NCBI GenBank assembly: GCA_963621145.1
Contig: CAVFDI010000001.1
Span: 79,066-143,065, forward strand
Length of the DNA stretch: 64,000 bases
DNA from: Paludibacteraceae bacterium
GTDB taxonomy: Bacteria > Bacteroidota > Bacteroidia > Bacteroidales > Paludibacteraceae
Reading direction: 5' to 3'
The notes under the pieces are model-generated. The model saw only the letters and a list, made by a program, of their open reading frames with translations, was not told where the DNA came from and ran no database searches. A program made the translations under genes and the position numbers. Shown one piece after another: positions 5,801 through 60,563 of this stretch. The stretch's first letter is position 1, and each line of letters opens with the position of its first letter.

Positions 5801-8800
5801 TAGTAACCGATGCCAACGGTTGCGAGGCGAAGGCTTATCAGCAGATTGTGGTGAGTGCGCCTATCGATGTAACTCTTACGGGCGACAATTCGGTTTGCGA
5901 AGGTGGCAGCATCAGCGTAACCGTGAGCGGTGCGCCTAGCGGAAGCACCTATTCGTGGTCGACCGCTGGCACGTTGAGCAATGGCGATGCCACTCTCACA
6001 TTCACACCAAATGTGAACGATGCTGCAGTGTCGGTAACTGTAACTCCACCTGCTGCAAAAGGTTGCGCTGTTACTAAGACCTTCTCGTTCACTGTAACGC
6101 CTGCTCCTACGGGAAACATTACTGGTGTAACATCTATTTGCAACGGCGGTAGCACCACACTGTATGCTCCTGCTGGGCCTGCGGGAACGACCTACAAATG
6201 GAACAATGGCGCAACAACGCAATCGATTACCACACCTGCGCTGTTCAAAAATACCACCTATTCGGTCGACATTGTTTATCCAACGGGATGCACATTGTCG
6301 CCAACGCCTGTCATTGTGAAGATAAATGCTGCGCCAACTGGCACCATCACTGCTTCGAGCGATGTGGTTTGTGTGGGCGAACAGGTTGAACTCACTGTTA
6401 CTTCAGCAACCGCTACTGGCTGGAGTTGGAGCAACGGAACAACTGGCACGAACAAGGCTTACTACACACCAACCACCAGCGGCAATGTTCAATATTATGT
6501 CGACATTACTGCTAATGGCTGCACCGAGCGCGTCAGCAAAAACATCACAGTAGTTGATAAACCTGTGGCTGCCATCGATAAATCGGCATCGACCTCTTCG
6601 TTCTGCGAAGGCGAGCAGGTAACGGTTGTTGCTACGGGCGGTACGCGTTACGAATTGAACGGACAAACTAGCACCACTGGTGTATTCTTGCTCAACCCAA
6701 CAGCAACTACCACTTACACCATTTCGGTATTCAACGAAAATGGTTGCGAAAGTCTGGTAACGCACACCGTAACCAAACTCGCACCAACTGCCGAACCGAG
6801 CATTGTGGCGAATGGGTCGCTCGAACTTTGCGTAGGCGATAGTCGCACACTCTCGATCAATAATGGCACAGTAGTCAATTGGATCGACGGCACATCTACA
6901 CCGAATTATATATATACAGCAACTTCGGCCGACTTGGGAACGAAAACAATCACTGCCAAAGTGAACGATTTGAACGGATGCAGCAAGTCGGTAAGTTTGG
7001 AATTTGTTGTTACTGAAATTCCTTCGGTGGCAATCACCACAACTAACGAAACCATCTGCAAAGGCGAAAAAGTAACTTTGACTGCTACACCGGGCTTGGC
7101 TTCGTATTCGTGGGAATCGGGCGAAAAGACTCAAGAGATAATTGTATCGCCAAGCATCACCACTACTTATGTCGTAACAGGAACTAACGCTGGCGGCTGC
7201 TCGTCGACGGCAAAAATAACCATCAATGTGGCGACACCTGATGCAGTATCGATTTCTGGTCCTGTCACGGCTTGCCCAGGCGAGAGCGTAACTCTGAGTG
7301 CTGTGGGCGGCAAAGCATGGAACTGGTCGCACGGACTTGGCACAAGCAATACGGCAACATTCAACGCTGCTACCACTACTACATACACTTGCGAAATTAC
7401 CGATTCGAAAGGTTGCGTAACCAAAGTTTCGCACACGCTCACCGTGAAAGAGACGCCAACGCCAACCGTTTCGGGTAACTTGAAAGTGTGCAAAGGTTTG
7501 AATACCACACTTAGCGCAAGCACCGCCGATGCCTACGAATGGAAGAAGGGCGCAACCGTGCTCAGCACTGCATCGACATTGACATTGACCAATGTTCAAA
7601 GTTCGGAAGATTACACGTTGACCGTAACTGTGAACGGTTGCCAAGCAAGCACTTCGTTCCGTGTAACGGCTTGCGAAAATCCAACTGATGCTGCTATCGT
7701 TGGTAAAGATAAAGTTTGCGAAGGCGAATCGGTTACACTCACCGCTGTGGGCAATGGTACTTATTCGTGGAGCACTGGCGCAACAGGCAGCGAAATAACT
7801 GTAATGCCAACCGCAGCCAACCACATCTACCAACTGACTGTTACCGATATGAACGGTTGCACGCAGATGGTACAAAAGAATATCACCGTATCGCCAACAC
7901 CATCGGTAACCATCGATGGTCCGACCGAGGTTTGCGCTGGACAGTCGGTTACTCTCTCCGCTAGCGGTACTGGCACGTTCTTGTGGGACGATGGCACAAC
8001 TACTACCGCAACTCTCAAAGTAACGCCTAGCGTAACGCGCGCTTACAAAGTAACCCTTACCGATGGTTCGGGTTGCACCGTAACCGCATCGCACACTGTA
8101 ACTGTGAAGACTTTGACCGCTCCGAAAATTTCGGCTGCGAAGACCGATGTCTGCAAAGGCGACAAAGTAACTCTTACTGCCACGGGCGAAACAGGTTGCA
8201 CCTTCACTTGGCCCGATTTGGGAAGAACGGGTGCTAGTATAGAGACTTATCCAACCACAACTACCACCTATAAAGTTACGGCTACGAACGCCACTGGTTG
8301 CACTGCCGATGGCTACATCACCATCAATGTACACGAACAGCCTACGGTAGCAGTTACGGTTACTAAGGCGGCAATTTGCGCTGGCGAATCGACTACCATC
8401 ACTGTAACGGGCGGCACGGAATATACTTGCAATGGCGAGACGAATACTTCTGGTATTTTCAATGTTTCGCCAACCAAAACTACACCATATAATATAGTGG
8501 TGAAAAATTCGGCGGGTTGCACCACAACAACATCGCAAACCATCACCGTCAACGAATTGCCTACAATCAGTGTTTCGGGAGTTGATAAAGCTTGCGCTGG
8601 CGAACTCATTAGCCTTACGGCTACGGGCGGCACCGAATATTTGTGGAGCAATGGCATGACATCGCAAACTGCCACCTATACGGTTTCTGGCACAGGTACC
8701 ATGTCGGTTTGGGTGAAAGGTAAGAACGCTAGCGGCTGCTGGAGCGGTCAAGTGGCGCACAACATCACCATCAATGCAAAACCAACCATTGCCGTTTCGG

Positions 8801-11800
8801 GAACGATGGATATTTGTGTTGGCAAATCGACCACACTGACTGCTTCGGGTGCAAGCACGTACGTTTGGACATGGTTAGGCGGCTCGGCTATGGGCAACAC
8901 GCTGAATGTGAATCCAACCGCTACTACCGTTTATAAAGTCGTTGGCACCGATGCCAATGGTTGTGTAGGCGAAACTTCGGTTACCGTGAATGTTTATCCT
9001 GAACCTACGGTTACCATAACAGGTCCGACCGAGGTGTGCGAGGGTGGCGAGATTACTCTTACTGCCAACGGCACAGGCACATTCTTGTGGAACACTGGCG
9101 AATCGTCGCAGCAGATAAAAGTGTCGGCGGCTGGAACCTATTCGGTTACCCTTACGGGCGAAGGCGGTTGCATTTCGAAAGCCGAATATGTTGTGAAACA
9201 GAAGTCAATCATTGCCAAGATAAACGATGTGATAGATGGCGTATCGACCATTTGCGAAGGTAGCGACATCATTCTTACCGCATCGGGCGGCAATGCATAC
9301 AAGTGGGACAATGGTCTGGGAACGAACGCTACCGTTACTGTAAAACCGACCACATCGACCACATATTGGGTGGAAGTTACCGACGCTTCGGGTTGCAGCA
9401 AACGCGTAAGTCATACCGTGAAAGTAACGCCAAAACCAACGCTCACCGTTGTGGGTAACACCACCATTTGCTATGGCGAGACTGCCAACATTACCGTTTC
9501 GGGTGCGAAGACCTATGTTTGGAGCGATGGCATTGGCACTGGCGCAAGCATCAAAGTGTCGCCAGTATCGACATCGACCTATACCGTAACTGCTACCGAC
9601 GAAAATGGTTGCGTTGCTACGCAAGATGTTAAAATCGAAGTTATTCCAACGCCTGTGGCTTCTATCAAGGCTAGCAAAACCACAGTTTGCGAAGGCGAAT
9701 CGGTTACACTTACTGCTGATGGCGGCGACAACTATGTTTGGGGCGATGGCAGCACAGGGGCATCTATCACTGTTACGCCAACTGCGCCAAGCACCACTTA
9801 CAAAGTTACGGCTTACAAGAATGGTTGCGCAAGTGCAGAGGTTTCGCAAGTCATCACTGTGAATGCACTGCCAACGGTAACCATCAAACCATCGGCAACC
9901 ACCGTTTGCAAAGGCGAAGAGGTTACACTTACTGCTTCGGGTGCAACATCGTACGAATGGAGCACTGGCGAAAAGACGCAAGCCATCACCGTTACGGTGA
10001 ATAGCGATGCCACCTATTCGGTAATTGGTACACAAAATGGCTGCCAAGGCACTGCCTCGCAGAGCATTAAAGTGGCTACACCGCCTACTATCAACATTTC
10101 GAGCAACACTGGAAAACTCTATATCTGCAATGGCGAAAGCATTACGCTGACCGCTTCGGGTGCAAACACCTACACTTGGTCTGGCGGATTGGGCAACACT
10201 GCTTCTATCACCGTTACGCCAACCGCTGACACTGAATACGAGGTCGAAGGCGTTTCGGCAAATGGATGCAAGGCTAAAGAGAAAGTCAAAGTAATTGTTT
10301 ACGACAAACCAAATCCAAAAATTACTGGCAATACCGAAATTTGCGAAGGCGACTACACCATTCTGACTGCCGACGATGCTAACGCCGTGGCTTGGGAGTG
10401 GAACACAGGTGCTAAGACTAAGAGCATCAATGCTTATCAGGCTGGAACTTACACCGTTACGGTAACTGGCAAAGGCGGTTGCACATCTACTGCTACGGCT
10501 ATTGTCACTTACTTAACGCCTATCAATGGTTCGATTAGCGGACCAGAAATTGTTTGCAAAGGCGAAAATGTAACTCTTACGGCTAGTGGTGGTAAGACCT
10601 ATCAATGGGATGAAAACACTGCCGAAAGCGAGAAACTTGTTCTTACCAACATACAAGTGAGTGGCACGCACTGGGTTACCATTACTGGTGCCAATGGCTG
10701 CACGCAGCGTTTGGGTCATTCTATCATTGTGAACGAACCTCCAACGCTCTCTATCACTGGTAATCAAACCTTCTGCGAAGGCGGAAGCACCACTCTTACC
10801 GCAGTCGGTACGGGCGATGTGCTGTGGAACACAGGAAGTACCAATCGCTCTATCACCGTATCTGCCGAAGGTGACTATACGGCTAAATTGACCGATGCTA
10901 ATGGCTGCTCGACATCACAAACTGTGCATGTAACGCGTAATCCATTGCCAGTGGCCATAATCACTGGTCCTACAAAGACTTGCGAGGGCGAACCTGTTAC
11001 ACTTAGTGTTTCGGGTGCCGAAAGCTACACTTGGAGCACAGGCGCTACGGGTCAAAGCATTACGGTTCAGCCTACTACGACCACAACCTACACCGTTACA
11101 CCAAAGACTGGACTCTGCATTGGCGATCCCGCTTCGTTCACCATAACTGTGAACAAGAAACCTGTAATCACCTTCAGTGGCGATTTGGAGATTTGTGCTG
11201 GCACTAAAGCCGTGATCACTGCCGATGCCGATGGCGCCGATCAGTATGTTTGGGGCGATGGATCGACGGGCGCGACATACACCACCGCTGTGCTCGAGTC
11301 GAACACCACATTTACCGTAACTGCTACAAATACCACTACGAATTGCTCGGCACAAAAACAGGTTACCGTCATTGTCAATCCGAAACCGGAAATCTCCATT
11401 TCGGGTACGACATCGGTTTGCGCTGGCGAATCGACCAAACTGACGGCTTCGCCTAGTGGCGCTACTTACGCATGGAGTAATGGTTCGACCAGTCGCACCG
11501 CAACCTTTAGCAATCTGATTAGCGACGAAGACTATTGGGTTGATGTAACCTTGGCTAACGGCTGCACCAATCGTCTCAATGGCACTATCAAAGTTTATGA
11601 TATGCCTGCTGCCGAAATCACTACAAACACTGGTACGAACACCGTTTGCCGTGGCGAAAGTATTACGCTTACTGCTTCGGGCGGAAACACCTATTTGTGG
11701 ACGCACGATGGCACGCGTAGCGCATCTGTTACCGTTACACCAACAAAAGATTCAAAATATACCGTGAAAGTGATTGGCGATGGCAACTGCTCGTCGACGG

Positions 11801-24521: not shown

Positions 24522-25427
24522 ATGAAAATTCAGAAGAAAAGAATGGCGCTTGCCGCTTGCCTATTGGTGGCGGCAAGCATAGCCGCTCCAGCCAAAACAC
24601 CAGCCTACATCGACCTTGAATTGGGCGGCGGTGCAGTGATGATGCCTTATAGCAATACTGATTATGGTATTTTTTCGGGCGGTAATTTCGATTTAGGAGC
24701 AAAATACTCGTTGCTTTTCCACCCGCGCAAAGGTTGGGGCGCAAGTTTTGGATTGAATTTTAGCACTTTTCAGGGAACGAAGGTGCTGAATGCAAGCCTC
24801 ACCTCGCCTGCTATCGACGACCAAGGACGCAGTTATGTGCTTTTTGCCGATGTGGCCAACTGGACCGAGCGTCAGCAGCAGTATTCCATCTCCATTCCAA
24901 TTAGCATCTTCTATCAGCATCAGCGTCCGCGTCACTCGGGCTGGTTCACATCGTTTGGTGTGAAACTCTATCTGCCGTTCTACACCGATTATCGCGTTAC
25001 GCAGGGCGACATTGTTACTAAGGGCTTCTACACGCAGTGGGGTGGCACTTACGACTACAATGGCGAACAGGGAGTGCTGATACAGTCGCTGCCGCAGCAC
25101 GGTTTCGGACAATACAACACGCTGCTGCCCAAAGGCGAAAATAAGGCCAATTTCTTGCTAACTGGTCAGGTGATGTTTGGCGCCATTCTGCGTCTCGACA
25201 AGAAAAACGAGATGTATTTGGCACTCTACATCGAGCATGGCTTCTACGACATGTACATCAATCGCGATGCGAAGGGCTTGTTCTCAACGATTCAGAGCCT
25301 CAATTCGTATCAGTACAACGGCTACTATTCGAGCCTTGCTACCAAAACCATACCAGCAATGTTTGGCTTGAAAGTGGGTTGGCGCTTCAAAGACGTGCAC
25401 GATTGTAACTGCATACGCCAACAGTAA
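24522..25427 (+). CDS. outer-membrane beta-barrel protein (porin-family-like), probably co-transcribed with the giant gene
   Basis: Signal peptide MKIQKKRMALAACLLVAASIAAPA, alternating amphipathic strands and a near-terminal GLKVGWRF strand. It starts 26 nt after the giant-gene stop, and a terminator follows. Confidence 0.7.
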   Translation: MKIQKKRMALAACLLVAASIAAPAKTPAYIDLELGGGAVMMPYSNTDYGIFSGGNFDLGAKYSLLFHPRKGWGASFGLNFSTFQGTKVLNASLTSPAIDDQGRSYVLFADVANWTERQQQYSISIPISIFYQHQRPRHSGWFTSFGVKLYLPFYTDYRVTQGDIVTKGFYTQWGGTYDYNGEQGVLIQSLPQHGFGQYNTLLPKGENKANFLLTGQVMFGAILRLDKKNEMYLALYIEHGFYDMYINRDAKGLFSTIQSLNSYQYNGYYSSLATKTIPAMFGLKVGWRFKDVHDCNCIRQQ

Positions 25428-25447
25428 GATTGTAGGCGATAAAACCA

Positions 25448-25483
25448 AAAAGAGAGCAGGCTTGTGATGGCTTGCTCTCTTTG
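25448..25483. terminator. bidirectional hairpin terminator between convergent genes
   Basis: aaaagagagca / tgctctcttt stem (~10 bp) with T-rich flanks on both strands. Confidence 0.6.
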
Positions 25484-25519
25484 AATATTTGGCATTTGTC
25501 TATTCCGCTGGACTCATTA

Positions 25520-25861
25520 CTACCCGATTTTACCAACGTGCGCTGTGCCGTTAGAAGCCTTCAGAATGTCTGCATCGTTGGCATAGTTGCGCGTGAGTTT
25601 GTTGTTGGTTGTGCCATAATCGCTGTCGTCGCAGTATTTTGTCATGGCATTGTAGGTGGTGCCGTATTTGTAACTGCTCCACGAATAGGTACTTTTCGTG
25701 TACTTTTCGCCCCATGCATAACGGTTGCCAGTGCCTTCGGGCTGCGATGCGCCCACATTGCAGGTTGCCCACCGAACGCTCAAACCAAGGTCGACCGAAG
25801 TTGCCGCCTGTGCAGCGACCGACAGCGCAATTGCGGTAAAAAGTGTAGTGATTTTTCTCAT
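25520..25861 (-). CDS. small secreted protein, possibly a 3'-truncated remnant
   Basis: Signal peptide MRKITTLFTAIALSVAAQA, then DLGLSVRWATCNVGA...YAWGE. From memory this motif pair begins larger Bacteroidales secreted proteins. The ORF stops at ...TAHVGKIG followed by two stops. Confidence 0.5.
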   Translation of the reverse strand: MRKITTLFTAIALSVAAQAATSVDLGLSVRWATCNVGASQPEGTGNRYAWGEKYTKSTYSWSSYKYGTTYNAMTKYCDDSDYGTTNNKLTRNYANDADILKASNGTAHVGKIG

Positions 25862-25974
25862 GACAAAAAGGGAAAAATGGTTACAACAAATCTTCGCCCG
25901 TGTTTTTGCGAGGCGCTCCCAAAAGATTCTGAACTACGTTTTCGGTGTTTTTTTATTGCCGAAAAGATTGACAA

Positions 25975-26391
25975 TTACTCTTTGTAGGTGTACGGTAGCG
26001 TTACCTTTTCGTCATCCACATTTGTGTATGTAACGATGATTTTGAGCATGGTAATTCCAGAGCTAAGTTTCTCAGGAACGCCCAATTCGTCTCTAACACG
26101 TTGGTCCGCACTTTGGGCAGCATGTTCTACTTTCTGTTTGACCTCCTTCGCATTGCTTTGCTGACGCATAATTACTGCGTTGTTCAACTCCTGTGGGCGT
26201 GTGCCAATTTTGGAGAGTTCTTCCATGAATAGTTCTTGCACATCGTACAACGTTACGCCTGTAGAACCTGAACCATTGGTGCTAGAATAATTAATTTCTG
26301 ATGTCATGCTCACTACAATGTCTTTCGATATGGTCTCCTCGCATGCAGTGAAACCAATCAACGCTGCGCAGCACACGGCCGCAAAAATCAT
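25975..26391 (-). CDS. hypothetical lipoprotein
   Basis: MIFAAVCCAALIGFTAC lipobox-like signal. No family recognised. Confidence 0.55.
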   Translation of the reverse strand: MIFAAVCCAALIGFTACEETISKDIVVSMTSEINYSSTNGSGSTGVTLYDVQELFMEELSKIGTRPQELNNAVIMRQQSNAKEVKQKVEHAAQSADQRVRDELGVPEKLSSGITMLKIIVTYTNVDDEKVTLPYTYKE

Positions 26392-26478
26392 CTTTTTTAT
26401 GTCGTAAAAAATTAAGGGGTTAATAATAGAATGAACACTATCTAAAATCGTGTTGATATAGTTTTATTTTTCTGCTGA

Positions 26479-26486
26479 CAAAGTTA
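26479..26486 (-). promoter_or_regulatory. -7 box (TAACTTTG on minus strand)
   Basis: Plus-strand caaagtta, 88 nt upstream of ATG 26391. Confidence 0.45.
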
Positions 26487-26548
26487 GAGAAAAATTTCAT
26501 TTATCCAAGAGATTGAGCAAAAAAGTGTAGTTTTTAACTTTTCACTCC

Positions 26549-28609
26549 TCAAAACTTATACTGCACATACACTCTGAAATCGGTTTTGTGGCAACCTGCT
26601 ATTTGGTTAAGACCAGAACCGATTTGCGTGCGGCCGTCGGTGTAGTAGGTCTGAGCCACACGCAGATAGAATTTCAAATCGCGAATTGGCTCGTAGTCGA
26701 TGTTCAAGTACCAACGATTGCCCACGCCATACATCGATGGCGAAAAGCCTGCGCTCGGCACATCGCGCTCGAACAGCGAAAAACGGTTGTCGTAGACTGT
26801 CGCGTCGAAATAGGCGTAGCGTGCGCTCAAGGTCATGTCGATTTTTTTGAAGGTGTAAGCCACATCTTGCGCTATCAGAAAACCATGCGAAGGCCGCTCT
26901 TTTTCAATGCGCACACGATTCCATTCCACCACGCTCTTCAAATCGAACCCCAGCACAGTGTAGTTCATGCAATAGCGCAGCGAGAGTTTGCGACTATCGG
27001 CCAGAAAAGTGGTTGCCTCGTGGCTTAGCGCTGCCGCCTTTGCCTCTTTGTAGCGATAGCGCATGCGCAGATACATCGCCAGGCGACTGTTTTTCATGTA
27101 ATCGACCTGAAGTAGGGTGGCGTAACCTTGCGTTGGGCGTGGCATGCTGTAGGTTACCCACGGTGTTTTGTAGAGATCGGCATATGCCGCAATTTTCCAA
27201 TTTTTGACGGGTTTTATCTCGCTTCCAATGTAGATGCCGTGTTCGTTGCGTGTGGCGGTCTGACCGAATGCATTGGCAAAAAATAGGTCGTAGTTGCGGC
27301 TGTAGTAACGGTGCGAAAGTACAAAATTCACCACCGAGGCTGGCGCAAAAGTCAGTCCGTTGATGGTGGCAACAGCACCGCGCCCCGTTACAGCCGTCTC
27401 GCCAAAAATGCCAAATCCGCGCCACGAAAACAGATAATCGACGCTGGCGGCAAATTGCTTATCTCCTCGGAAATAGAATTGCTGATAAGGCTTCGGGTCG
27501 TAGTCGAGCGGCACGCCCAGCCAAGTCTGCACAGCGGTGGCTCCAATGCGGAAAAATTTGTGCCGATAGCTCACGTTAGCACCCAAAACGTGCATTCCAA
27601 CGGTGCGACGACGCGCATATTCGTTGGGCGTGCGGTGGTAGCCATCTTTTTTGAACGATGAAAATGCTCCTCCGCTAGTGTCGGCGTCCATTTTTCGGTA
27701 CGAATAGAAGGCCGAAACATCGAAATTGCCAAATTGAGCGGTTGCGCCCACGCCTCGCAGAAAATTGTATTCGTCGGTCGACGAGTGGCGCTTCAGGCCG
27801 CGTGTGCGTGCCGAAACATTCGTGGCCATGGCGGTTGCGCCCATGTTCATGTCTTGCCTGATGACGAGTCCTTGACCAAAATTTGCCCGATAATCGCCCA
27901 AGACGATGGTGGAGAATTTCCACAATTTTTTCATCTGAATGAATCCTGAATAGGAATCGAACAATTTTTTGTTGTACGCGCCAACCCACTGTTCGCCAGC
28001 GTCTTTCTCCATGGTCAGTCCCACTTCGAGCTTGTCGCTGCTGCGCAATCGGTATTTCAGCGAAGTGTAGAACGGATCGCCCACGTAGCGCGCATTCGGA
28101 TTGGCGGCCAATTCCTCATCGGAAATGGAAGTGTAGCCTTTTCGGCGTTCGAAAGTGCCATCGAAACGCAGCGTGAATTCGTGTTTGCTCTCTTTCAAAA
28201 TGTCGCGCAAGTGCCATTCTGTTTCGGCATCGGGCGGCTCCACGCGCACAAATGGCAACAACATCTGAATGGTGAAAATGTCGAGTCCTTCGACCAACTG
28301 CAGTTCGTAGATGGTTTGCATGCGACCAGCTTTGTAGATGTAGTACATCAAATTTTCAATCTGAATGTCGCTCAAAAAACGCAACTGCGCCAAGTCGTCG
28401 GGCGTGGCGGTGTTCAGATTGATGGGCGAAAGATAGATGGCTTCGAGGTCGTCGTACAAATCGCCGTAGTCAATTTCGCCATCTTCGGCATCCTCCATCA
28501 GAAAATCGTAGATGCGCTCTATCACGCGGTCGATAGCTACCTCGTCTTGCGCTGCTGCCGAGCCAACAGTGAGCAACGCCGCCAACGCTATGGTTGCGAG
28601 GCGTTTCAT
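26549..28609 (-). CDS. outer-membrane beta-barrel protein with an N-terminal ComEA-like tandem helix-hairpin-helix module
   Basis: ORF trimmed to MKRLATIALAALLTVGSAAAQ (ATG 28609). INLNTATPDDLAQLRFLSDIQIENLMYYI...IYELQLVEGLDIFTIQMLLPFV gives two HhH motifs. About 560 aa of barrel-like sequence follow, ending ...DFRVYVQYKF. Confidence 0.75.
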   Translation of the reverse strand: MKRLATIALAALLTVGSAAAQDEVAIDRVIERIYDFLMEDAEDGEIDYGDLYDDLEAIYLSPINLNTATPDDLAQLRFLSDIQIENLMYYIYKAGRMQTIYELQLVEGLDIFTIQMLLPFVRVEPPDAETEWHLRDILKESKHEFTLRFDGTFERRKGYTSISDEELAANPNARYVGDPFYTSLKYRLRSSDKLEVGLTMEKDAGEQWVGAYNKKLFDSYSGFIQMKKLWKFSTIVLGDYRANFGQGLVIRQDMNMGATAMATNVSARTRGLKRHSSTDEYNFLRGVGATAQFGNFDVSAFYSYRKMDADTSGGAFSSFKKDGYHRTPNEYARRRTVGMHVLGANVSYRHKFFRIGATAVQTWLGVPLDYDPKPYQQFYFRGDKQFAASVDYLFSWRGFGIFGETAVTGRGAVATINGLTFAPASVVNFVLSHRYYSRNYDLFFANAFGQTATRNEHGIYIGSEIKPVKNWKIAAYADLYKTPWVTYSMPRPTQGYATLLQVDYMKNSRLAMYLRMRYRYKEAKAAALSHEATTFLADSRKLSLRYCMNYTVLGFDLKSVVEWNRVRIEKERPSHGFLIAQDVAYTFKKIDMTLSARYAYFDATVYDNRFSLFERDVPSAGFSPSMYGVGNRWYLNIDYEPIRDLKFYLRVAQTYYTDGRTQIGSGLNQIAGCHKTDFRVYVQYKF

Positions 28610-29445
28610 CGGCCAAAACGGTATTGAAGTGCGCCGAGCATGGTCACGCCCAGCGGATTGCGGTATTCGCAGTGCAGATGAAAACGGAAGCCGCCCCAGC
28701 CGCAGCCCACGCCAAGGGTTGGCACCACATAGTCGCTGCCGTAGCAACCAATGCGCACGTCGAACACGTCGAATGGTGCGTATTCAAAGCCTGTGGCCCA
28801 CCGCAGCGGCGAATGTACCTCTTTGTCTATTTGCACCAGCCACGCCACTTTCTCGTGAATTTTGTAGTTCGTTCCCAGACTGAAAACCGATGGCAGGCGT
28901 TTTTCGGTGAGGTCGCTTTTTATTTTCGAAAAGATGGGGTTGAACGCACTAAAACCGATGGTGAGCGATGGAATCACTTGTACCTGAAAACCCACTTGCA
29001 CGGTGGCTGTGCTGCGGTAGCGTTCTGTCGGCGAAAGGTAAACTGCGTAGTAGTCGCACTCCACGCCAAGGTGGAAAATTTCGCCAAAAGTGCGTGCAAA
29101 GGTTACGGCTGCCAGCATTTCGTTGTATTCGGCATAGCCAAAATACGAAAATTGTGCGCCAATGTTGATGTATTTCGTTGGAATGGCCACGCTTGCTGCG
29201 GCATTCGATAGTTCGGCTGTGATGTAGCGATTTTCGTAGAGTAGCGAAACGGCATATTGCTTTTCGCAAGCCAATGCAGCTGGATTTTGGAACGGTTGCC
29301 ACTCGGCTGTGTAGGCCACCGAGGCATTGCCTGCCGTGTACGAACTTGGTACGATGGTGGCTATTTGCGCCTGCATTGTGCCGCTTGTGCAGGTTGCAAA
29401 AACGAGCAGTACGATGTTTGCAAATTGTCTTACGGAGCGATGCAT
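28606..29445 (-). CDS. PorV/PorQ- or PorP/SprF-like outer-membrane beta-barrel
   Basis: Signal peptide ...ATCTSGTMQAQ. The AGNASVAYTAEWQPFQNPAALA motif resembles the G-x-A...NPAgLA signature of T9SS barrel families. Ends in LGALQYRFGR. Its stop overlaps the next ATG (ATGA at 28606..28609). Confidence 0.5.
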   Translation of the reverse strand: MHRSVRQFANIVLLVFATCTSGTMQAQIATIVPSSYTAGNASVAYTAEWQPFQNPAALACEKQYAVSLLYENRYITAELSNAAASVAIPTKYINIGAQFSYFGYAEYNEMLAAVTFARTFGEIFHLGVECDYYAVYLSPTERYRSTATVQVGFQVQVIPSLTIGFSAFNPIFSKIKSDLTEKRLPSVFSLGTNYKIHEKVAWLVQIDKEVHSPLRWATGFEYAPFDVFDVRIGCYGSDYVVPTLGVGCGWGGFRFHLHCEYRNPLGVTMLGALQYRFGR

Positions 29446-29473
29446 TTTTGGCAGTTGATAGGTTAGTTGCCGT

Positions 29474-29481
29474 CAAAAATA
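29474..29481 (-). promoter_or_regulatory. -7 box (TATTTTTG on minus strand)
   Basis: Plus-strand caaaaata, 29 nt upstream of ATG 29445. Confidence 0.5.
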
Positions 29482-29781
29482 GGCAAAAACTGTTTAATTT
29501 GCAAATTTTCGCTCCAAAAAATTGTTCATAGGCTCAAAACGATGTACGAAAACAGTCGAAAATGCCGATGAGTAGGGTGTTTGTTACGATTTGGAAAAAT
29601 GGCGATTGTGGACTGATTTTGAAGATTTTTGGTGAATTTTGTCAGGATTTTTGCGTTTTTCGTCGAGAAAATAGCGCCATTTTTGCGTAAAAATCAGAAA
29701 AATGCGTGCAAAGATGAAAAAACTGGGAATGATTTTCGGTGAAAATGGTAAGTCTTATACTTCAATTTTTGCAGTGCCCCG

Positions 29782-29805
29782 TCTTTACTCCTTACTCCTT
29801 ACTCA
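29782..29805 (-). repeat. heptad tract (GGAGTAA)n overlapping the HD-gene stop
   Basis: The sense strand reads TAA GGAGTAA GGAGTAA AGACGG. Confidence 0.8.
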
Positions 29806-30341
29806 AATTTCTCTACCCATTCGTCGAAGCGTTCTACCGACGAATCGCCGAAACGGGCAAGTTTTTCGCGGGCTTGGTCGATGGTTAGCTCTTGGTCGAG
29901 GTGCGATTTGGAATAGAATTTATCGGCATAGCAAATCAGCTGCTCTTCGAGGCTAATAGGGCGCATATCGCGGTGCGGCAGCGGCAGGTCTTGCTCCAAA
30001 ATCTGCTCGAGCGAAATGCCCGTGCCAGTGTGACGCTCGCACACAAGAGCGTGGCGCGGCAGACCTTCGCGACGCATCAATTCGGCACCAAGGTAACCAT
30101 GCTCGATGTAGCGATGAGATCCCACGCAGAAAATTTTTGGCGCTTCGGTCATAAAAATGCCAATGTCGTGCAGCATGGCGGCTTCGGCCACAAAATCGGT
30201 GTCGATACCGAGTTCGGGGTGGCGGCTGGCCAACAGCAACGCCTTGTTGCAAACCGACTGACTGTGCTTCACAAGCGTGTCGTAGAGCGGCGTGCCTGGC
30301 AGATAATAGTGCGTGATTATGTCGAATACGTCAACTTTCAT
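29799..30341 (-). CDS. HD-domain phosphohydrolase
   Basis: H...HD motif (AAMLHDIGIF), 180 aa. Starts 27 nt after the upstream nuclease stop. Confidence 0.85.
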   Translation of the reverse strand: MKVDVFDIITHYYLPGTPLYDTLVKHSQSVCNKALLLASRHPELGIDTDFVAEAAMLHDIGIFMTEAPKIFCVGSHRYIEHGYLGAELMRREGLPRHALVCERHTGTGISLEQILEQDLPLPHRDMRPISLEEQLICYADKFYSKSHLDQELTIDQAREKLARFGDSSVERFDEWVEKFE

Positions 30342-30368
30342 AAACTCTGATTTTTCTGACGTGAATGA

Positions 30369-32291
30369 TTATTTCATCACTATTTTTTGAGTGATTGTTT
30401 TGCCGCTTTCGTTTTTCAATTGCAAAATAACAATGCCCGATGCCCCAAAATTGGCAGTGCTGAGTGTGGCGCTATCGTCGCTGATTTCTATCGAGTAGAG
30501 TGTGCGTCCGAGCATGTCGTAAACCGTGGCGGTGAAGCCTTGAGCGCGCTCTATGCGCACCAATCCATCGTGCGAAATGGTCTGCACAAATGGCGCGTCG
30601 TCGTTGCTGATATTTGGCACGGGCGTGTCGTCGTGGTAAGTGCCGAGGCTCAAACCCACAACCACCGCATCGTGGTCTGAATAGCGATACATCAACTCGT
30701 CGGTGTCGCTCTCGTAGCCAAAAATTGTCGGCTCATCGGCACTGAAATGAGCCACTCTGGCACCGGTAACTTGCGCCGTCATAGTGCTGTTGCCCAGCGC
30801 GTGGTCGAGCAGCCCGAAACGTCCGTTGTAGACATACGAATAGGCGTTTGCATCGTATTTTCTGAGCAGATTCCGGTAGCCTGCGCTCACAAATTTCTGT
30901 ACAGGATCTTCCATCGAATGGGCATTCATATCGCCCATTATCAGCACATCAGGGTCGAGGGTTTGCGCTGCACATTTATTGATAATCGATTCCGCCTCGG
31001 CCACGCGTGTGGCGTTGTAAGCACCCTGACCATCGTTCTGGTCTTGGTCGCTGCCCGAAGCCGACGACGAACCGCTTTTCGACTTTAAGTGATTGAGCGA
31101 CAGCACAAAAGCCTCTCCATTTTCGTTCAGTTTGAAAGCCTGAATCACCTTTCGATAATAGGTTTTCAGATTGTTCATTTGCAGACTGCCGAGCGGCGTC
31201 ACGCGGTCGTTGCGGTAGATGATGGCGCTTTTGGTGTACGACGAATAGACCGATGTTCCATCGTTGATGTACGAATAGATTTGACTGCCAGCGGCTTCGT
31301 TCATTGCGTTGCAAAGGTAGGCAATGGCGTCTTGCCCCTGTTGCATTTCGAGCAATCCGTAGATGTCGGCATCGATGGCGCGCAGGGCTTTCACTATTTT
31401 GGCGTGCTGACGATTGGCAAGCGTCTCGTTAGCGGCTCCATAGCCTGTGCCAAAATCGCTTCGCAAATAGTATTGAAGATTGGCAGCGCATACCACCAGA
31501 TTGCATTCGCCAAGGTCGGGGCGCGCGGCCGGACGCTCGTTGCTGTGCCATGCTGGCGTGGTAGCGGTCTGCAGACGGTGACTATTTCCGCTCGACGAAA
31601 CCACCGTTGCTACCAAATCATCAACCTGATAACCCGTTCGTAGCGTGCCGTTGGCATCGGCAAAAGGCCTGTTTTGCGATGTGGCTGGCGCAAGAATCAG
31701 ATAGTTGCGGCTGTTCTCATTCACCACGGTTTGATATTCGCTGCTGCTGGGCAATGCCACCTCGGTGGGCGTCATCAGCAGACCATTCGACAGCGTGATG
31801 GTGCTGTTTGTGCCGCTGTTCCAATAGCGGTTGTTGGTTACGGTGAGCGTGTTGGCAAATTGCACCGACATGCCCACATAGTTGCTGCCTTTGCCATCTG
31901 CAAAATCATCTGGAAAAGTTACTTTTGTAGTATTAACTTGTTGATGTTCAGCGGTTTTTTCTATGCTTGAAACATTGTGCAGTGTGTCGTCGGAGCAAAA
32001 AGCCGTCAGAGTTATGCCGTTGCCGAGGCGGATATTGGCAGTGTCGGTCAATACAAAAATGGCATCACGCGTCGAGTCGTCGCCATCGCCCGTGGCATCT
32101 TGAATGAAAAATCCATCGCCCAAAATGGCAGTTACCACGCCCGATGTTTTCACTTCGTTTGCAGCGATTTTGGTGGTTGATTTTGCCGTTTTTCGTTGAT
32201 TGCATGGCAATTCGTAGATGCGCATGGCGGTCTGCGCTGTGGCAAAAATAGCTATGGTTAGCGCAAAAATGAGCGAGTAGGTGCGTTTCAT
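30369..32291 (-). CDS. extracellular endonuclease/exonuclease/phosphatase-fold nuclease (ExeM/NucH-like) with a T9SS C-terminal sorting domain
   Basis: ORF trimmed to MKRTYSLIFALTIAIFATAQ (ATG 32291). Has a GDGFFIQDATGDGDDSTRDAIFV OB-like region, the EEP motif YSDHDAVVVGLSL, and a C-terminus TVYDMLGRTLYSIE...GIVILQLKNESGKTITQKIVMK. Confidence 0.75.
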   Translation of the reverse strand: MKRTYSLIFALTIAIFATAQTAMRIYELPCNQRKTAKSTTKIAANEVKTSGVVTAILGDGFFIQDATGDGDDSTRDAIFVLTDTANIRLGNGITLTAFCSDDTLHNVSSIEKTAEHQQVNTTKVTFPDDFADGKGSNYVGMSVQFANTLTVTNNRYWNSGTNSTITLSNGLLMTPTEVALPSSSEYQTVVNENSRNYLILAPATSQNRPFADANGTLRTGYQVDDLVATVVSSSGNSHRLQTATTPAWHSNERPAARPDLGECNLVVCAANLQYYLRSDFGTGYGAANETLANRQHAKIVKALRAIDADIYGLLEMQQGQDAIAYLCNAMNEAAGSQIYSYINDGTSVYSSYTKSAIIYRNDRVTPLGSLQMNNLKTYYRKVIQAFKLNENGEAFVLSLNHLKSKSGSSSASGSDQDQNDGQGAYNATRVAEAESIINKCAAQTLDPDVLIMGDMNAHSMEDPVQKFVSAGYRNLLRKYDANAYSYVYNGRFGLLDHALGNSTMTAQVTGARVAHFSADEPTIFGYESDTDELMYRYSDHDAVVVGLSLGTYHDDTPVPNISNDDAPFVQTISHDGLVRIERAQGFTATVYDMLGRTLYSIEISDDSATLSTANFGASGIVILQLKNESGKTITQKIVMK

Positions 32292-32362
32292 TGCTGATTT
32301 GATTTTCAAACCTGCAAATTTACTCACATTTGACCGATTTTGCAAATTTGCTGAAAAAGTAC

Positions 32363-32370
32363 TACTTTTG
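32363..32370 (+). promoter_or_regulatory. -7 box TACTTTTG for smpB
   Basis: Consensus TAnnTTTG that ends 5 nt before ATG 32376. Confidence 0.55.
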
Positions 32371-32375
32371 CACTC

Positions 32376-32837
32376 TTGATGAAAACGAAAGTCGACATAA
32401 AAAATCGTCGCGCCTCGTTCGACTACGAGTTGCTCGATCGCTACACGGCTGGCATTGTGCTTTGCGGAACAGAGATTAAGTCCATTCGCGAGGGGCATGC
32501 CGCTCTTACCGACGCCTTTTGCACTTTTACCGATGGCGAGTTGTGGGTTCGCAACATGCATATCAGCGAATATCGGCTTGGCACTTGCTACAACCACGAT
32601 GCGCAGCGGGTGCGTAAATTGCTACTCACACGGCGCGAACTGCGCAAATTGCAGCGAGCAGTGAAAGAGAGCGGACTCACCATTGTGCCGACTTCGCTCT
32701 ACATCAACGAAAAGGGCTTGGCGAAACTTAATATTGCTCTTGCGCGAGGCAAAAAAAACTACGACAAGCGCGATTCCCTGCGCGAAAAAGCCGACCGCCG
32801 CGAGATGGACAGAGTTCGTAAAGTGAAAAGTTTGTAA
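32376..32837 (+). CDS. smpB: SsrA-binding protein
   Basis: [32 protein letters not shown]...[11 protein letters not shown]...[28 protein letters not shown]. Confidence 0.95.
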
Positions 32838-32947
32838 AATCGACGATTGCGAAAGAATTAGAATGATGCGTTTGCAGATTTTCTGGAGCAAAAAATCTTG
32901 CGCGTCACTTTTTTCTTGAAAAATTTTGTCAATTCGACAAAAAACAC

Positions 32948-32955
32948 TACTTTTG
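32948..32955 (+). promoter_or_regulatory. -7 box TACTTTTG for tRNA-Thr
   Basis: Consensus box 14 nt upstream of tRNA position 1. Confidence 0.6.
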
Positions 32956-32969
32956 CAGCCGAAAAAATT

Positions 32970-33042
<73 letters not shown>

Positions 33043-33050
33043 CACAAAAC

Positions 33051-33091
33051 AAGCGCAGTACCTCGTTGGGGGGCTGCGCTTGATGTTTTTT
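33051..33091 (+). terminator. rho-independent terminator after tRNA-Thr
   Basis: aagcgcag / ctgcgctt 8-bp stem followed by a TTTTTT run. Confidence 0.7.
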
Positions 33092-33104
33092 GTCGATAAA
33101 ATCG

Positions 33105-33112
33105 TATCTTTG
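33105..33112 (+). promoter_or_regulatory. -7 box TATCTTTG
   Basis: Consensus box 16 nt upstream of ATG 33128. Confidence 0.5.
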
Positions 33113-33127
33113 CAACAATAAATATCC

Positions 33128-33628
33128 ATGCTCACGCCCTACACCTCCACCATCGACCAAGAGACGCTTCGCGAACGATACATCGCTGAGGCTGCTGAAT
33201 TTTATCGACAAAAGATGTAAAGCATTATTGGCGGCGATTCGAGTCGGCGGCTCGAACTGCGCGGCTACATTCCCGATGGCGTGGGTGGCACGCGCGTAGA
33301 ATTGCCCGCCACGCTGATGTACCGCATCGATACGCTGCATAGCAACGATGGCCATCGCCTGTACGAGTTTCTTATCGAGTGCGACATCGACACGCCAAGC
33401 ACTGGCATCTACTACGGCTGCCGCGGCGTAACAGTCGATGGTTTCGACCACACGCGCGAGATTGAGCAATATCGCAAGGATCGCGAAATCATTCTCCCCG
33501 AAATCTGCCAAATACTCAACAACACCTTTCCGCTGAAGGATTCCTCGCACCGATTCAAACTGACCGACAATGCGCAAGACGGCACTTATTGGCTGTCATG
33601 TAATGTTTGGGGATTGAGTAAGGAGTAA
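33128..33628 (+). pseudogene. hypothetical gene interrupted by an in-frame TAA (33218..33220); alternatively a shorter CDS from GTG 33281
   Basis: ATG 33128 gives MLTPYTSTIDQETLRERYIAEAAEFYRQKM*. The same frame continues SIIGGDSSRRLELRGYIPDGVGGTRVELPATLMYRIDTLH... to 33628. I checked the frame codon by codon. Confidence 0.4.
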
Positions 33629-33664
33629 AGAATAAGGATAAAGGACAAAAGACGGAGGACTGGG
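33616..33664 (+). repeat. heptad tract of seven GA-initiated 7-mers
   Basis: GAGTAAG GAGTAAA GAATAAG GATAAAG GACAAAA GACGGAG GACTGGG, with GA at 33616, 23, 30, 37, 44, 51 and 58. It spans the ORF stop at 33626..33628. Confidence 0.85.
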
Positions 33665-33707
33665 CGCTGCAATTGGTCATGATTGTTGCTTTGTCATAGT
33701 CAATTGC

Positions 33708-33756
33708 CAAAGCTCACCATCGTAATGGAAAGAAGTTTACTATCGTAGTGGAAACT
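33708..33756 (+). repeat. 49-bp direct repeat, copy 1
   Basis: caaagCtcaccatcgtaatggaaagaagtttactatcgtagtggaaact. Contains the internal half-sites ATCGTAATGGAAA and ATCGTAGTGGAAA, 23 nt apart. Confidence 0.9.
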
Positions 33757-33781
33757 ATTTGTGTAATTCAAAATAAGTGTG

Positions 33782-33789
33782 TATCTTTG
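33782..33789 (+). promoter_or_regulatory. -7 box TATCTTTG for the ATPase gene
   Basis: Consensus box 26 nt upstream of ATG 33815. Confidence 0.55.
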
Positions 33790-33814
33790 CCGGCGAAATA
33801 AATTTCAATTCGCT

Positions 33815-35041
33815 ATGATACTGCAAAACGTCATCGAACAAGTATCCAAAAAACAGTGGCAACAGTTGTCGAAACGCCGTGTGTATAATCGTCGACTGCT
33901 CGAAAAAATACATTTTCCAATCACTGACTTTGTGATTGTGATATCGGGAGTTCGTCGCTGTGGCAAAAGCACGCTAATGGCGCAAATTGCTGCTCAAAAT
34001 TCAGATCAGGCCTTGTTCTACCTCAATTTTGATACGCCGCAACTCTATGGTTTTAGCATGGATGATTACCAGCGCATCGATGAGATATTACGTGGCTATG
34101 CCGAACAACCTTTGCTATTTTTCGACGAAGTGCAAGTGGTGGAAGGTTGGGAACTTTATGTGCGCGGCAAACTCGACGAGGGCTATCAAGTGGTAGTGAG
34201 TGGTAGCAATGCCGCTATGTTAAGTCGCGAGCTTGGCACACGGCTCACTGGGCGGCATTTGTCGTACGAACTTTTCCCATTCTCGTTTAGCGAATTTTGT
34301 GGCTTTTTGCGCTGTCCTACCGACTACAAGTCGCAACTTGCCTACATGGAACGTGGCGGATTTCCGCTCTATTTGCAACTGCACGATACCGATATTCTCA
34401 ACAATCTGCTTTCGGATATTCTTTATCGCGATGTAGCCACACGTTATGCCATACGCGACTACGACAAGTTAAAAGAACTTGCCATGTTGCTGTTGAATAA
34501 CGTTGGAAATTTGGTAACTGCAAATAAACTGCGCCAAGCACTGGGAATAAATAGCTCGACTACTGTAAGCGAGTATTTTTCGCACCTTCGACAGAGCTAT
34601 TTGTTCGATTTTGTGCCGATTTATTCATCGTCGGACAAGGTGCGTATTGTAAATCCGCGCAAGATCTATTGCATAGATACGGGATTGGTTAGCGTTTGTA
34701 GCACTGCCATGTCGAATAATGTTGGCCATCGTCTAGAAAATATGGTTTACTGCGAATTACGACGAAAGTATAGCGAACTCTACTATTTTAGTAAAAATGG
34801 TCATGAGTGCGATTTTGTTGCGATGGAAAAAGGCAAATGTGCCCAATTGGTGCAGGTTTGTGCTGATTTTAATCCTGATACTTACCAGCGCGAGGTGCAG
34901 GGTCTGTTAGCTGCCATGACTGCCATCGACGTTCAGCAAGGAACTATCGTTACTATGCGCCAGTACGACAGATTGCTCGAGGGTAAGAATCGCATCGATA
35001 TTTTGCCTTTCTACCGCTGGGCAAGCGAGAATGATTTTTAA
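33815..35041 (+). CDS. AAA+ ATPase of the AAA_14/DUF4143 type (COG1373-like)
   Basis: ORF trimmed to MILQNVIEQV. Has Walker A GVRRCGKST, Walker B LLFFDEVQ and a C-terminal DUF4143-like region. Confidence 0.85.
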   Translation: MILQNVIEQVSKKQWQQLSKRRVYNRRLLEKIHFPITDFVIVISGVRRCGKSTLMAQIAAQNSDQALFYLNFDTPQLYGFSMDDYQRIDEILRGYAEQPLLFFDEVQVVEGWELYVRGKLDEGYQVVVSGSNAAMLSRELGTRLTGRHLSYELFPFSFSEFCGFLRCPTDYKSQLAYMERGGFPLYLQLHDTDILNNLLSDILYRDVATRYAIRDYDKLKELAMLLLNNVGNLVTANKLRQALGINSSTTVSEYFSHLRQSYLFDFVPIYSSSDKVRIVNPRKIYCIDTGLVSVCSTAMSNNVGHRLENMVYCELRRKYSELYYFSKNGHECDFVAMEKGKCAQLVQVCADFNPDTYQREVQGLLAAMTAIDVQQGTIVTMRQYDRLLEGKNRIDILPFYRWASENDF

Positions 35042-60528: not shown

Positions 60529-60563
60529 CTTCTCACTTTTCACTCCTAATTCCTCACTAATCA
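60529..60563 (-). repeat. heptad tract spanning the mnmA stop and the xseA leader
   Basis: Plus strand: CTTCTCA CTTTTCA CTCCTAA TTCCTCA CTAATCA. Sense strand: GATTAGT GAGGAAT TAGGAGT GAAAAGT GAGAAGT. Confidence 0.8.

Follow-up and report, generated by a model that had tools for sequence, protein, structure and literature searches.

The T9SS-type nuclease and HD phosphohydrolase genes of a Paludibacteraceae genome probably form an operon separate from the neighbouring PorV-like/HhH-barrel pair

A 64,000-nt stretch of contig CAVFDI010000001.1 (here called the window) from the genome assembly of an uncultured, gut-type Paludibacteraceae bacterium (GCA_963621145.1) carries six open reading frames (ORFs) on its minus strand within 25520..32291, and a check of the ORFs and their translations found all six in place. 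They include genes for an ExeM/NucH-type nuclease with a type IX secretion system (T9SS) sorting domain, an HD protein, a PorV/PorQ-like small barrel and an HhH-barrel. The original prediction, made from the letters alone, joined the six into one locus for the capture and salvage of extracellular DNA. Our analysis indicates that they are probably two separate units and not one six-gene system, namely a nuclease-HD operon and an independent barrel pair that came to lie downstream of it in a single species cluster. Coordinates are positions in the window; G000 denotes the source genome, other G-numbers the compared genomes, L-numbers loci and g-numbers genera.

Promoters were searched for by a scan for the Bacteroidota TTTG/TAnnTTTG motif. 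A sigma-70 model, which is the wrong model for Bacteroidota, returned 7 sites vs. 8.6 expected from shuffled sequence, and the corresponding figures for intrinsic terminators were 15 and 12.5. The nuclease gene is preceded by TTTG-N20-TAAATTTG, a candidate promoter whose −7 box stops 23 nt short of the nuclease ATG and which lies back to back with that of smpB; the proposed two-gene operon would be transcribed from it. The HD gene starts exactly 27 nt after the nuclease stop codon in G000, as had been predicted, and a scan of the 250 nt upstream of HD in 12 genomes (G000 and 11 congeners) found a −7 box in one only, G002, where it lies at −85. The terminator scan found no hairpin after the nuclease gene or after HD (post-HD fold z = 0.31). 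The junction itself is tight in much of the genus: the stop of the nuclease gene shares 1 nt with the HD start, as T(A/G)ATG (TAATG or TGATG), in G002, G004, G006, G007, G009, G011 and G014, which represent two deep subclades, and the gap measures 27–39 nt in G000, G008 and G010 and 163–274 nt, with heptamer repeats, in G001 and G003. The pair thus shows one promoter, neither promoter nor terminator inside, and a conserved tight junction, the features by which we judged it as an operon. Because the promoter stands only upstream of the nuclease gene, the overlap recurs in seven congeners and the pair is kept in five genera, co-transcription of nuclease and HD is very probable, in agreement with the original prediction.

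The heptamer repeats, (TAAGGAG)n or (AGGAGTG)n, start at or just after stop codons and introduce a stop into each reading frame. Three matches lie in the window vs. 0.08 expected by chance, at 29785–29799 (−), 33621–33635 (+) and 60540–60554 (−), and the repeats also occur in the nuclease-HD spacers of G001, G003, G008 and G010, the spacer being expanded in G001 and G003. On the other side of the nuclease gene, the smpB −7 box TACTTTTG lies in a 90-nt divergent control region common to smpB and the nuclease promoter and ends 5 nt before the smpB ATG (box to start: 32363–32376 (+)); the mRNA of smpB would thus have no leader or almost none.

To follow the two genes through the family, 151 genomes of 33 genera were surveyed, 115 of these genomes being of good quality (nuclease threshold E ≤ 1e-30). 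HD is present in 145 of the 151 genomes, in every one of the 115 good-quality genomes and in all 33 genera; the nuclease is present in 60 genomes, spread over 19 genera. They lie side by side on one strand in 15 genomes, from five genera (g1, g29, g32, g34 and g35), are both present and unlinked in about 42, and are convergent neighbours in one (G075), with two ambiguous cases at contig ends. A first sample of 40 relatives had confined the linkage to the genus of G000, a result overturned by the larger sample. Since the flanks of the pair differ between the five genera, the pair is conserved in itself and not just as part of a frozen block. Separate retention of the two genes is seen in G013, g33, g41 and g3, and more distant nuclease homologues sit among unrelated genes.

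The ancestral layout of the genus is smpB< NUC> HD> F6<, F6 being a major facilitator superfamily (MFS) transporter gene, with the barrel pair elsewhere as F3< PorV-like> HhH-barrel>. In g32, g34 and g35, HD is followed by lpxK, sometimes with an overlap, and the HD-lpxK order is unchanged in three g32 genomes that have no nuclease. In other genera HD lies 5–50 nt from genes for an S41 peptidase, fmt, thioredoxin, gldH, dxr, ispF or rubrerythrin; further neighbours elsewhere are an S9 peptidase gene and, in G019, a C_GCAxxG_C_C gene to which HD is coupled, and in some genomes HD is a solitary gene flanked by priA and a DUF3078 gene. The most economical interpretation is that HD belongs to the Paludibacteraceae core genes and readily shares transcripts with any upstream gene, and that in one subclade, comprising the five genera, an accessory nuclease gene directly upstream would lend it a promoter. 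The nuclease-HD link would then be one of expression and not of pathway.

The loci with HD next to lpxK, which encodes the lipid A 4′-kinase, are L053:10243–11911, L056:6257–7821, L058:42–1580 and L062–L064, and in two other genera HD lies beside the methylerythritol phosphate (MEP) pathway genes ispF and dxr. These adjacencies are possible hints to the role of the HD protein.

The PorV-like gene has a candidate promoter of its own, TTTG-N20-TATTTTTG, which ends 29 nt before its ATG and would serve both genes of the barrel pair; the prediction that the pair is the next transcription unit was thus sound. The HhH-barrel gene begins within the end of the PorV-like gene, the two sharing 7 nt. Adjacency of these two genes to each other is a feature of the order, seen in about 35 of the 41 genomes sampled across it, most of them without the nuclease. 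Directly after nuclease-HD the pair is found only in G000, G008 and G010, close relatives among which the PorV-like protein has 97% identity. Of the compared genomes, only G010 and G008 conserve the 353-nt spacer that separates HD from the PorV-like gene, and in G008 the link consists of two small contigs abutting across this same spacer. In 11 of 14 congeners nuclease-HD and the barrel pair are on different contigs. Because the adjacency is confined to G000, G008 and G010, the link to the barrel pair is not syntenic elsewhere; of the comparative synteny proposed in the original prediction, the nuclease-HD part held across five genera and the extension to the barrel pair did not.

A role of the HhH-barrel in binding DNA at the outer membrane as part of the locus was likewise not borne out. 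The protein scored 27.8 bits against HHH_3, at the threshold (cut-off 27), and neither of its two hairpins shows G-h-G in the translation, where the positions read LRFLSDIQ and VEGLDIFT. Taking two G-h-G hairpins as the ComEA-type HhH DNA-binding consensus, as we assumed for this comparison, both hairpins of the barrel are degenerate as judged from their sequence. Its partner scored 39.8 bits against the PorV/PorQ family model NF033709, below the cut-off of 90. The pair appears to be an independent, order-wide outer-membrane module that does not belong to the nuclease unit.

In G013, HD alone has shifted to a position after the HhH-barrel gene and the nuclease is still beside smpB (L014, G013:C7, ~6824–10469). 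Copies of a DUF4143-ATPase gene lie at the borders in both rearranged arrangements (G000 and G013), and recombination between repeats is a plausible cause of both. A single inversion was considered as the way in which the barrel pair came to lie behind HD; it agrees with the arrangement of the genes from F3 to lipo138 but was not confirmed, since F6, the MFS transporter gene expected at the predicted border, is absent there. We propose that a recent rearrangement in the lineage of the species cluster G000/G008/G010 put the barrel pair downstream of HD.

The nuclease, the first gene of the proposed operon, matched the NCBIfam model ExeM_NucH_DNase (NF033681) with 356.8 bits (cut-off 300) over the whole hidden Markov model (HMM; 1–546, on residues 49–549) and Pfam Exo_endo_phos (PF03372) with E 1.4e-10. 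It is not ExeM proper, for which NF033680 (exonuc_ExeM-GG) gave 118.6 bits vs. a cut-off of 1300, with only model positions 220–600 aligned. The translation contains both motifs quoted in the original prediction, GDGFFIQDATGDGDD and YRYSDHDAVVV, and begins with MKRTYSLIFALTIAIFATAQT, an ordinary Sec signal that lacks a lipobox cysteine. Residues N271, E315, H401, D454, N456, D496, D539 and H540 of the EEP domain are invariant in an alignment of 30 homologues, and we take them, from their placement onto DNase I positions, to be the catalytic and metal-binding set. The AlphaFold model (predicted local distance difference test, pLDDT, 87.7) comprises the beta-rich N-terminal region, a middle domain, the EEP domain and a C-terminal beta-sandwich (568–640); Foldseek placed the catalytic part nearest to EEP proteins, Tdp2 and DNase I (E 1e-13 to 1e-10). 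In profile searches with the nuclease family, residues 37–97 matched the N-terminus of EEP proteins that were deposited recently, PDB 9sf8/9sf9, and positions 569–640 matched PDB 8glk_D, a 75-aa ‘Endonuclease I’. The label ‘OB-like’ for the N-terminal region has as its sole basis the family HMM and the 9sf8/9sf9 match.

The C-terminal domain (CTD) scored 27.8 bits against the T9SS type-A sorting domain TIGR04183 (cut-off 23) and 29.2 bits against NF033708, and the source genome encodes the T9SS protein SprA (2885 bits) and about 29 CTD cargos above the cut-off, the 7223-aa ORF of the window included. The prediction of a T9SS-secreted ExeM/NucH-type nuclease is thus supported by these sequence matches. 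As a non-specific, metal-dependent nuclease of the DNase I (EEP) fold, it would be exported by Sec and then directed by its CTD to the T9SS, to be released or attached to the surface. From family membership it would degrade extracellular DNA, and Ca2+/Mg2+-dependent, sugar-non-specific action on such DNA is expected.

Like ExeM of Shewanella oneidensis, Xds of Vibrio cholerae and NucH of Aeromonas, the nuclease has an OB-like (YhcR-like) region followed by an EEP domain (NF033681/NF033680). Shewanella ExeM combines a lamin-tail domain (LTD), a YhcR-like OB region, an EEP domain and GlyGly-CTERM (PMC6085458). The protein described here lacks the lamin-tail domain, has 640 aa vs. 871 aa in ExeM, and carries a T9SS CTD where ExeM has its GlyGly-CTERM/rhombosortase anchor, so export route and surface attachment would differ. 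Export by a T9SS C-terminal domain is common to the 8glk chain and to AS87_RS02955, a T9SS-secreted nuclease of Riemerella anatipestifer (PMC12398890), although the 8glk chain is named Endonuclease I and the catalytic domain here is EEP. The protein is therefore an added member of a known family, from the rarely studied Paludibacteraceae, and T9SS tails are common in Bacteroidota.

The 180-aa HD protein matched Pfam HD (PF01966) with E 5.6e-08 and 33.5 bits (cut-off 22) and HDIG (TIGR00277) with 39.6 bits (cut-off 27.6). Its residues H26, H58, D59, H81, H104 and D140 are invariant and form the six-residue H...HD...H...H...D ligand set, and its AlphaFold model is all-helical (pLDDT 92.5). These results point to a metal-dependent HD/HDIG phosphohydrolase. 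The sequence has no N-terminal hydrophobic segment or export signal, and the protein is therefore predicted to be cytoplasmic. Relatives number more than 8000 in the database, with identity typically 60–65% across the family Paludibacteraceae. A PDB sequence search returned only a spurious designed-repeat match. By fold, the model is nearest to hydrolases of intracellular signalling nucleotides: PgpH (c-di-AMP; E 1.4e-3, template modelling score (TM) 0.54), HD-GYP PA4781 (c-di-GMP) and YqeK (Ap4A) share its H...HD...H...H...D pattern with TM 0.51–0.55 (overall E 1.4e-3 to 2e-2, TM 0.5–0.55), but at an identity of only 15–18% and Foldseek E ~1e-3 this is a likeness of fold and not membership of a family. 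Models for YfbR-type 5′-deoxynucleotidases and for Aph1/SAH were absent among the NCBIfam and Pfam matches at E ≤ 0.01. An Aph1-type (p)ppApp hydrolase (PMC10083569) was considered and rejected, as no SAH, Rel or Aph1 structure was among the top 50 folds.

Several observations weigh against a link of expression alone and against a clean separation of the two units. The nuclease-HD pair persists in five genera with both flanks changed, often 2–49 nt apart or with a 1-nt overlap; such retention goes beyond the synteny of a simple block, and selection for co-expression may lie behind it. The HD protein might act on DNA breakdown products. Within the genus, HD and the barrel pair have come together on two occasions and in opposite orders (HD then pair in G000/G008/G010, pair then HD in G013), for which chance alone is an unsatisfying explanation. 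There is also no recognisable terminator after HD, and for this reason transcription might read through into the PorV-like gene. A rival reading of the operon itself is a partnership in DNA salvage, in which oligonucleotides or deoxynucleoside monophosphates (dNMPs) made outside by the nuclease would be imported and hydrolysed by the cytoplasmic HD enzyme, for example as an oligonucleotidase or 5′-deoxynucleotidase, and co-translation would keep the two in proportion. The stop/start overlap in seven genomes of two subclades and the survival of the pair amid changing flanks speak for such a partnership, and HD-superfamily enzymes include nucleotidases. We nevertheless consider it unlikely: HD is universal in the family and the nuclease is found in 40% of its genomes, HD stays with lpxK where the nuclease is missing, and both genes are retained when apart. 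The absence of a YfbR-type match and the resemblance of the fold to signalling-nucleotide phosphodiesterases also speak against it, and nucleotides are normally dephosphorylated before they cross the inner membrane. Its fuller version, a two-compartment pathway in which fragments made by the T9SS DNase pass, perhaps via the ddb-like transporter encoded on contig C49 (below), to a cytoplasmic bimetal HD enzyme that degrades short oligonucleotides or deoxynucleotides, is similarly improbable.

That all six genes of 25520..32291 act together, the nuclease cutting DNA, the HhH-barrel and its PorV-like partner binding and passing it at the outer membrane and HD hydrolysing phosphoesters, is very improbable. 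The genes share a strand and are adjacent in G000, G010 and G008, the terminator scan found no hairpin between HD and the PorV-like gene, and HD is beside the barrel pair, in the other order, in G013 too. Against this stand the separate contigs in most congeners, the occurrence of the barrel pair across the order in genomes that mostly have no nuclease, its own promoter, and hairpins that read FLS and GLD in place of G-h-G. The remaining two genes add little cohesion, as the lipoprotein gene of the stretch is common to G000 and G010 only, and the 113-aa ORF had no match in the family HMM searches (Pfam, NCBIfam). The ddb-like cluster, moreover, lies elsewhere in the genome, and HD, which lacks an export signal, is spread family-wide. 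The claim of a single capture and salvage locus was therefore not upheld. We give still less credence to the idea that the PorV/PorQ-like barrel is a dedicated T9SS shuttle for the nuclease, in the way that PorV shuttles CTD proteins. The nuclease does carry a CTD and the small barrel does resemble PorV/PorQ weakly, but its score is below the family cut-off, its adjacency to the nuclease unit is limited to one species cluster, and it is always paired with the HhH-barrel, nuclease-free genomes included. The reading we prefer remains that of two units, a nuclease-HD operon and a barrel pair with its own promoter.

The characterized route of DNA utilization in Bacteroidales is ddbABCDEF of Bacteroides thetaiotaomicron, which combines secreted nucleases with the TonB-dependent DdbC and the DUF5689 protein DdbD, and to which transformation genes of Riemerella anatipestifer are related (PMC12478041). 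Secreted Bacteroidales nucleases that act on exogenous DNA are common to ddb and to the locus described here, but the Ddb nucleases are signal peptidase I or II (SPI or SPII) proteins and the nuclease of the window is a T9SS cargo. No DdbC transporter or DUF5689 DdbD was found beside it at the locus, where its neighbours are smpB, HD and the PorV-like and HhH-barrel genes. The sole DUF5689 match of the genome is on contig C49, where three genes make up G000:C49:7685–12729 (locus L070): one for a divergent EEP nuclease of 357 aa (PF19580, 351 bits, minus strand), one for a 1044-aa protein and the DUF5689 gene, cut by the contig end. At its N-terminus the 1044-aa protein carries a SusC-type CarboxypepD_reg domain, and it matches Plug weakly (E 0.13); the HMMs did not confirm it as a TonB-dependent transporter. 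The cluster is a candidate counterpart of ddbB-C-D by sequence resemblance. DNA import, if it occurs, would more plausibly proceed by this cluster than by the nuclease-HD/barrel locus; the T9SS nuclease might supply the cluster in trans.

The genome encodes another extracellular EEP nuclease at G000:C51:5568–7688 (L034), a paralogue of 706 aa with a choice-of-anchor J domain. Its gene stands alone and is conserved in the genus, and the protein matched the ExeM/NucH model in the C-terminal half of that model (152.9 bits).

The features of the locus are collected in Table 1. The only Rfam match in 25000..34000 is a tRNA at 32970..33042. Beyond the six genes, the 7223-aa ORF (2824–24495 (+)) has its T9SS CTD at the end (TIGR04183, 34.5 bits) and is followed after 26 nt by a 301-aa ORF (24522–25427 (+)) that has no family match.

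Table 1. Features of the nuclease-HD and barrel-pair region, with coordinates in the window
Feature	Coordinates	Strand	Basis or remarks
Candidate promoter of the nuclease-HD unit	32315..32346	−	Motif scan: TTTG (32346..32343), 20-nt spacer, TAAATTTG (32322..32315)
ExeM/NucH-family nuclease, 640 aa	30369..32291	−	Sec signal, OB-like N-terminal region, middle domain, EEP domain, T9SS CTD
N-terminal beta-rich OB-like region, residues ~45–124, with GDGFFIQDATGDGDD	31920..32159	−	NF033681 HMM, PDB 9sf8/9sf9 match, AlphaFold strands
EEP (DNase I-like) catalytic domain, residues ~265–547	30651..31499	−	PF03372, invariant columns, Foldseek
T9SS C-terminal sorting domain, residues ~568–640	30372..30590	−	TIGR04183, NF033708, 8glk_D profile match
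Nuclease-HD spacer, 27 nt	30342..30368	−	No −7 box, no hairpin
Predicted cytoplasmic HD/HDIG metal-dependent phosphohydrolase, 180 aa	29799..30341	−	HMMs, invariant ligands, AlphaFold model
Spacer from HD to PorV-like gene, 353 nt	29446..29798	−	Heptamer repeat TAAGGAGTAAGGAGTAA from HD stop; candidate promoter 29505..29474
PorV/PorQ-like small barrel	28606..29445	−	NF033709 below cut-off
HhH-barrel gene	26549..28612	−	HHH_3 at threshold
smpB, divergent from nuclease	32376..32837	+	HMM match; neighbourhood conserved genus-wide only

The comparison removes a tempting reading of this region as a DNA capture machine, and genes that are neighbours within a single species cluster are not thereby shown to form a system. 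The same caution applies to any separate hypothesis on the HhH-barrel pair, which has no conserved synteny with nucleases. What it illustrates is how an accessory gene for a secreted enzyme and a core gene may come to share a common promoter. The residual novelty lies in the conserved coupling of the nuclease to an uncharacterized enzyme, a widely distributed and strongly conserved 180-aa HD/HDIG protein with a substrate worth finding. For the bacteria themselves, the T9SS nuclease together with the ddb-like cluster suggests that they process extracellular DNA.

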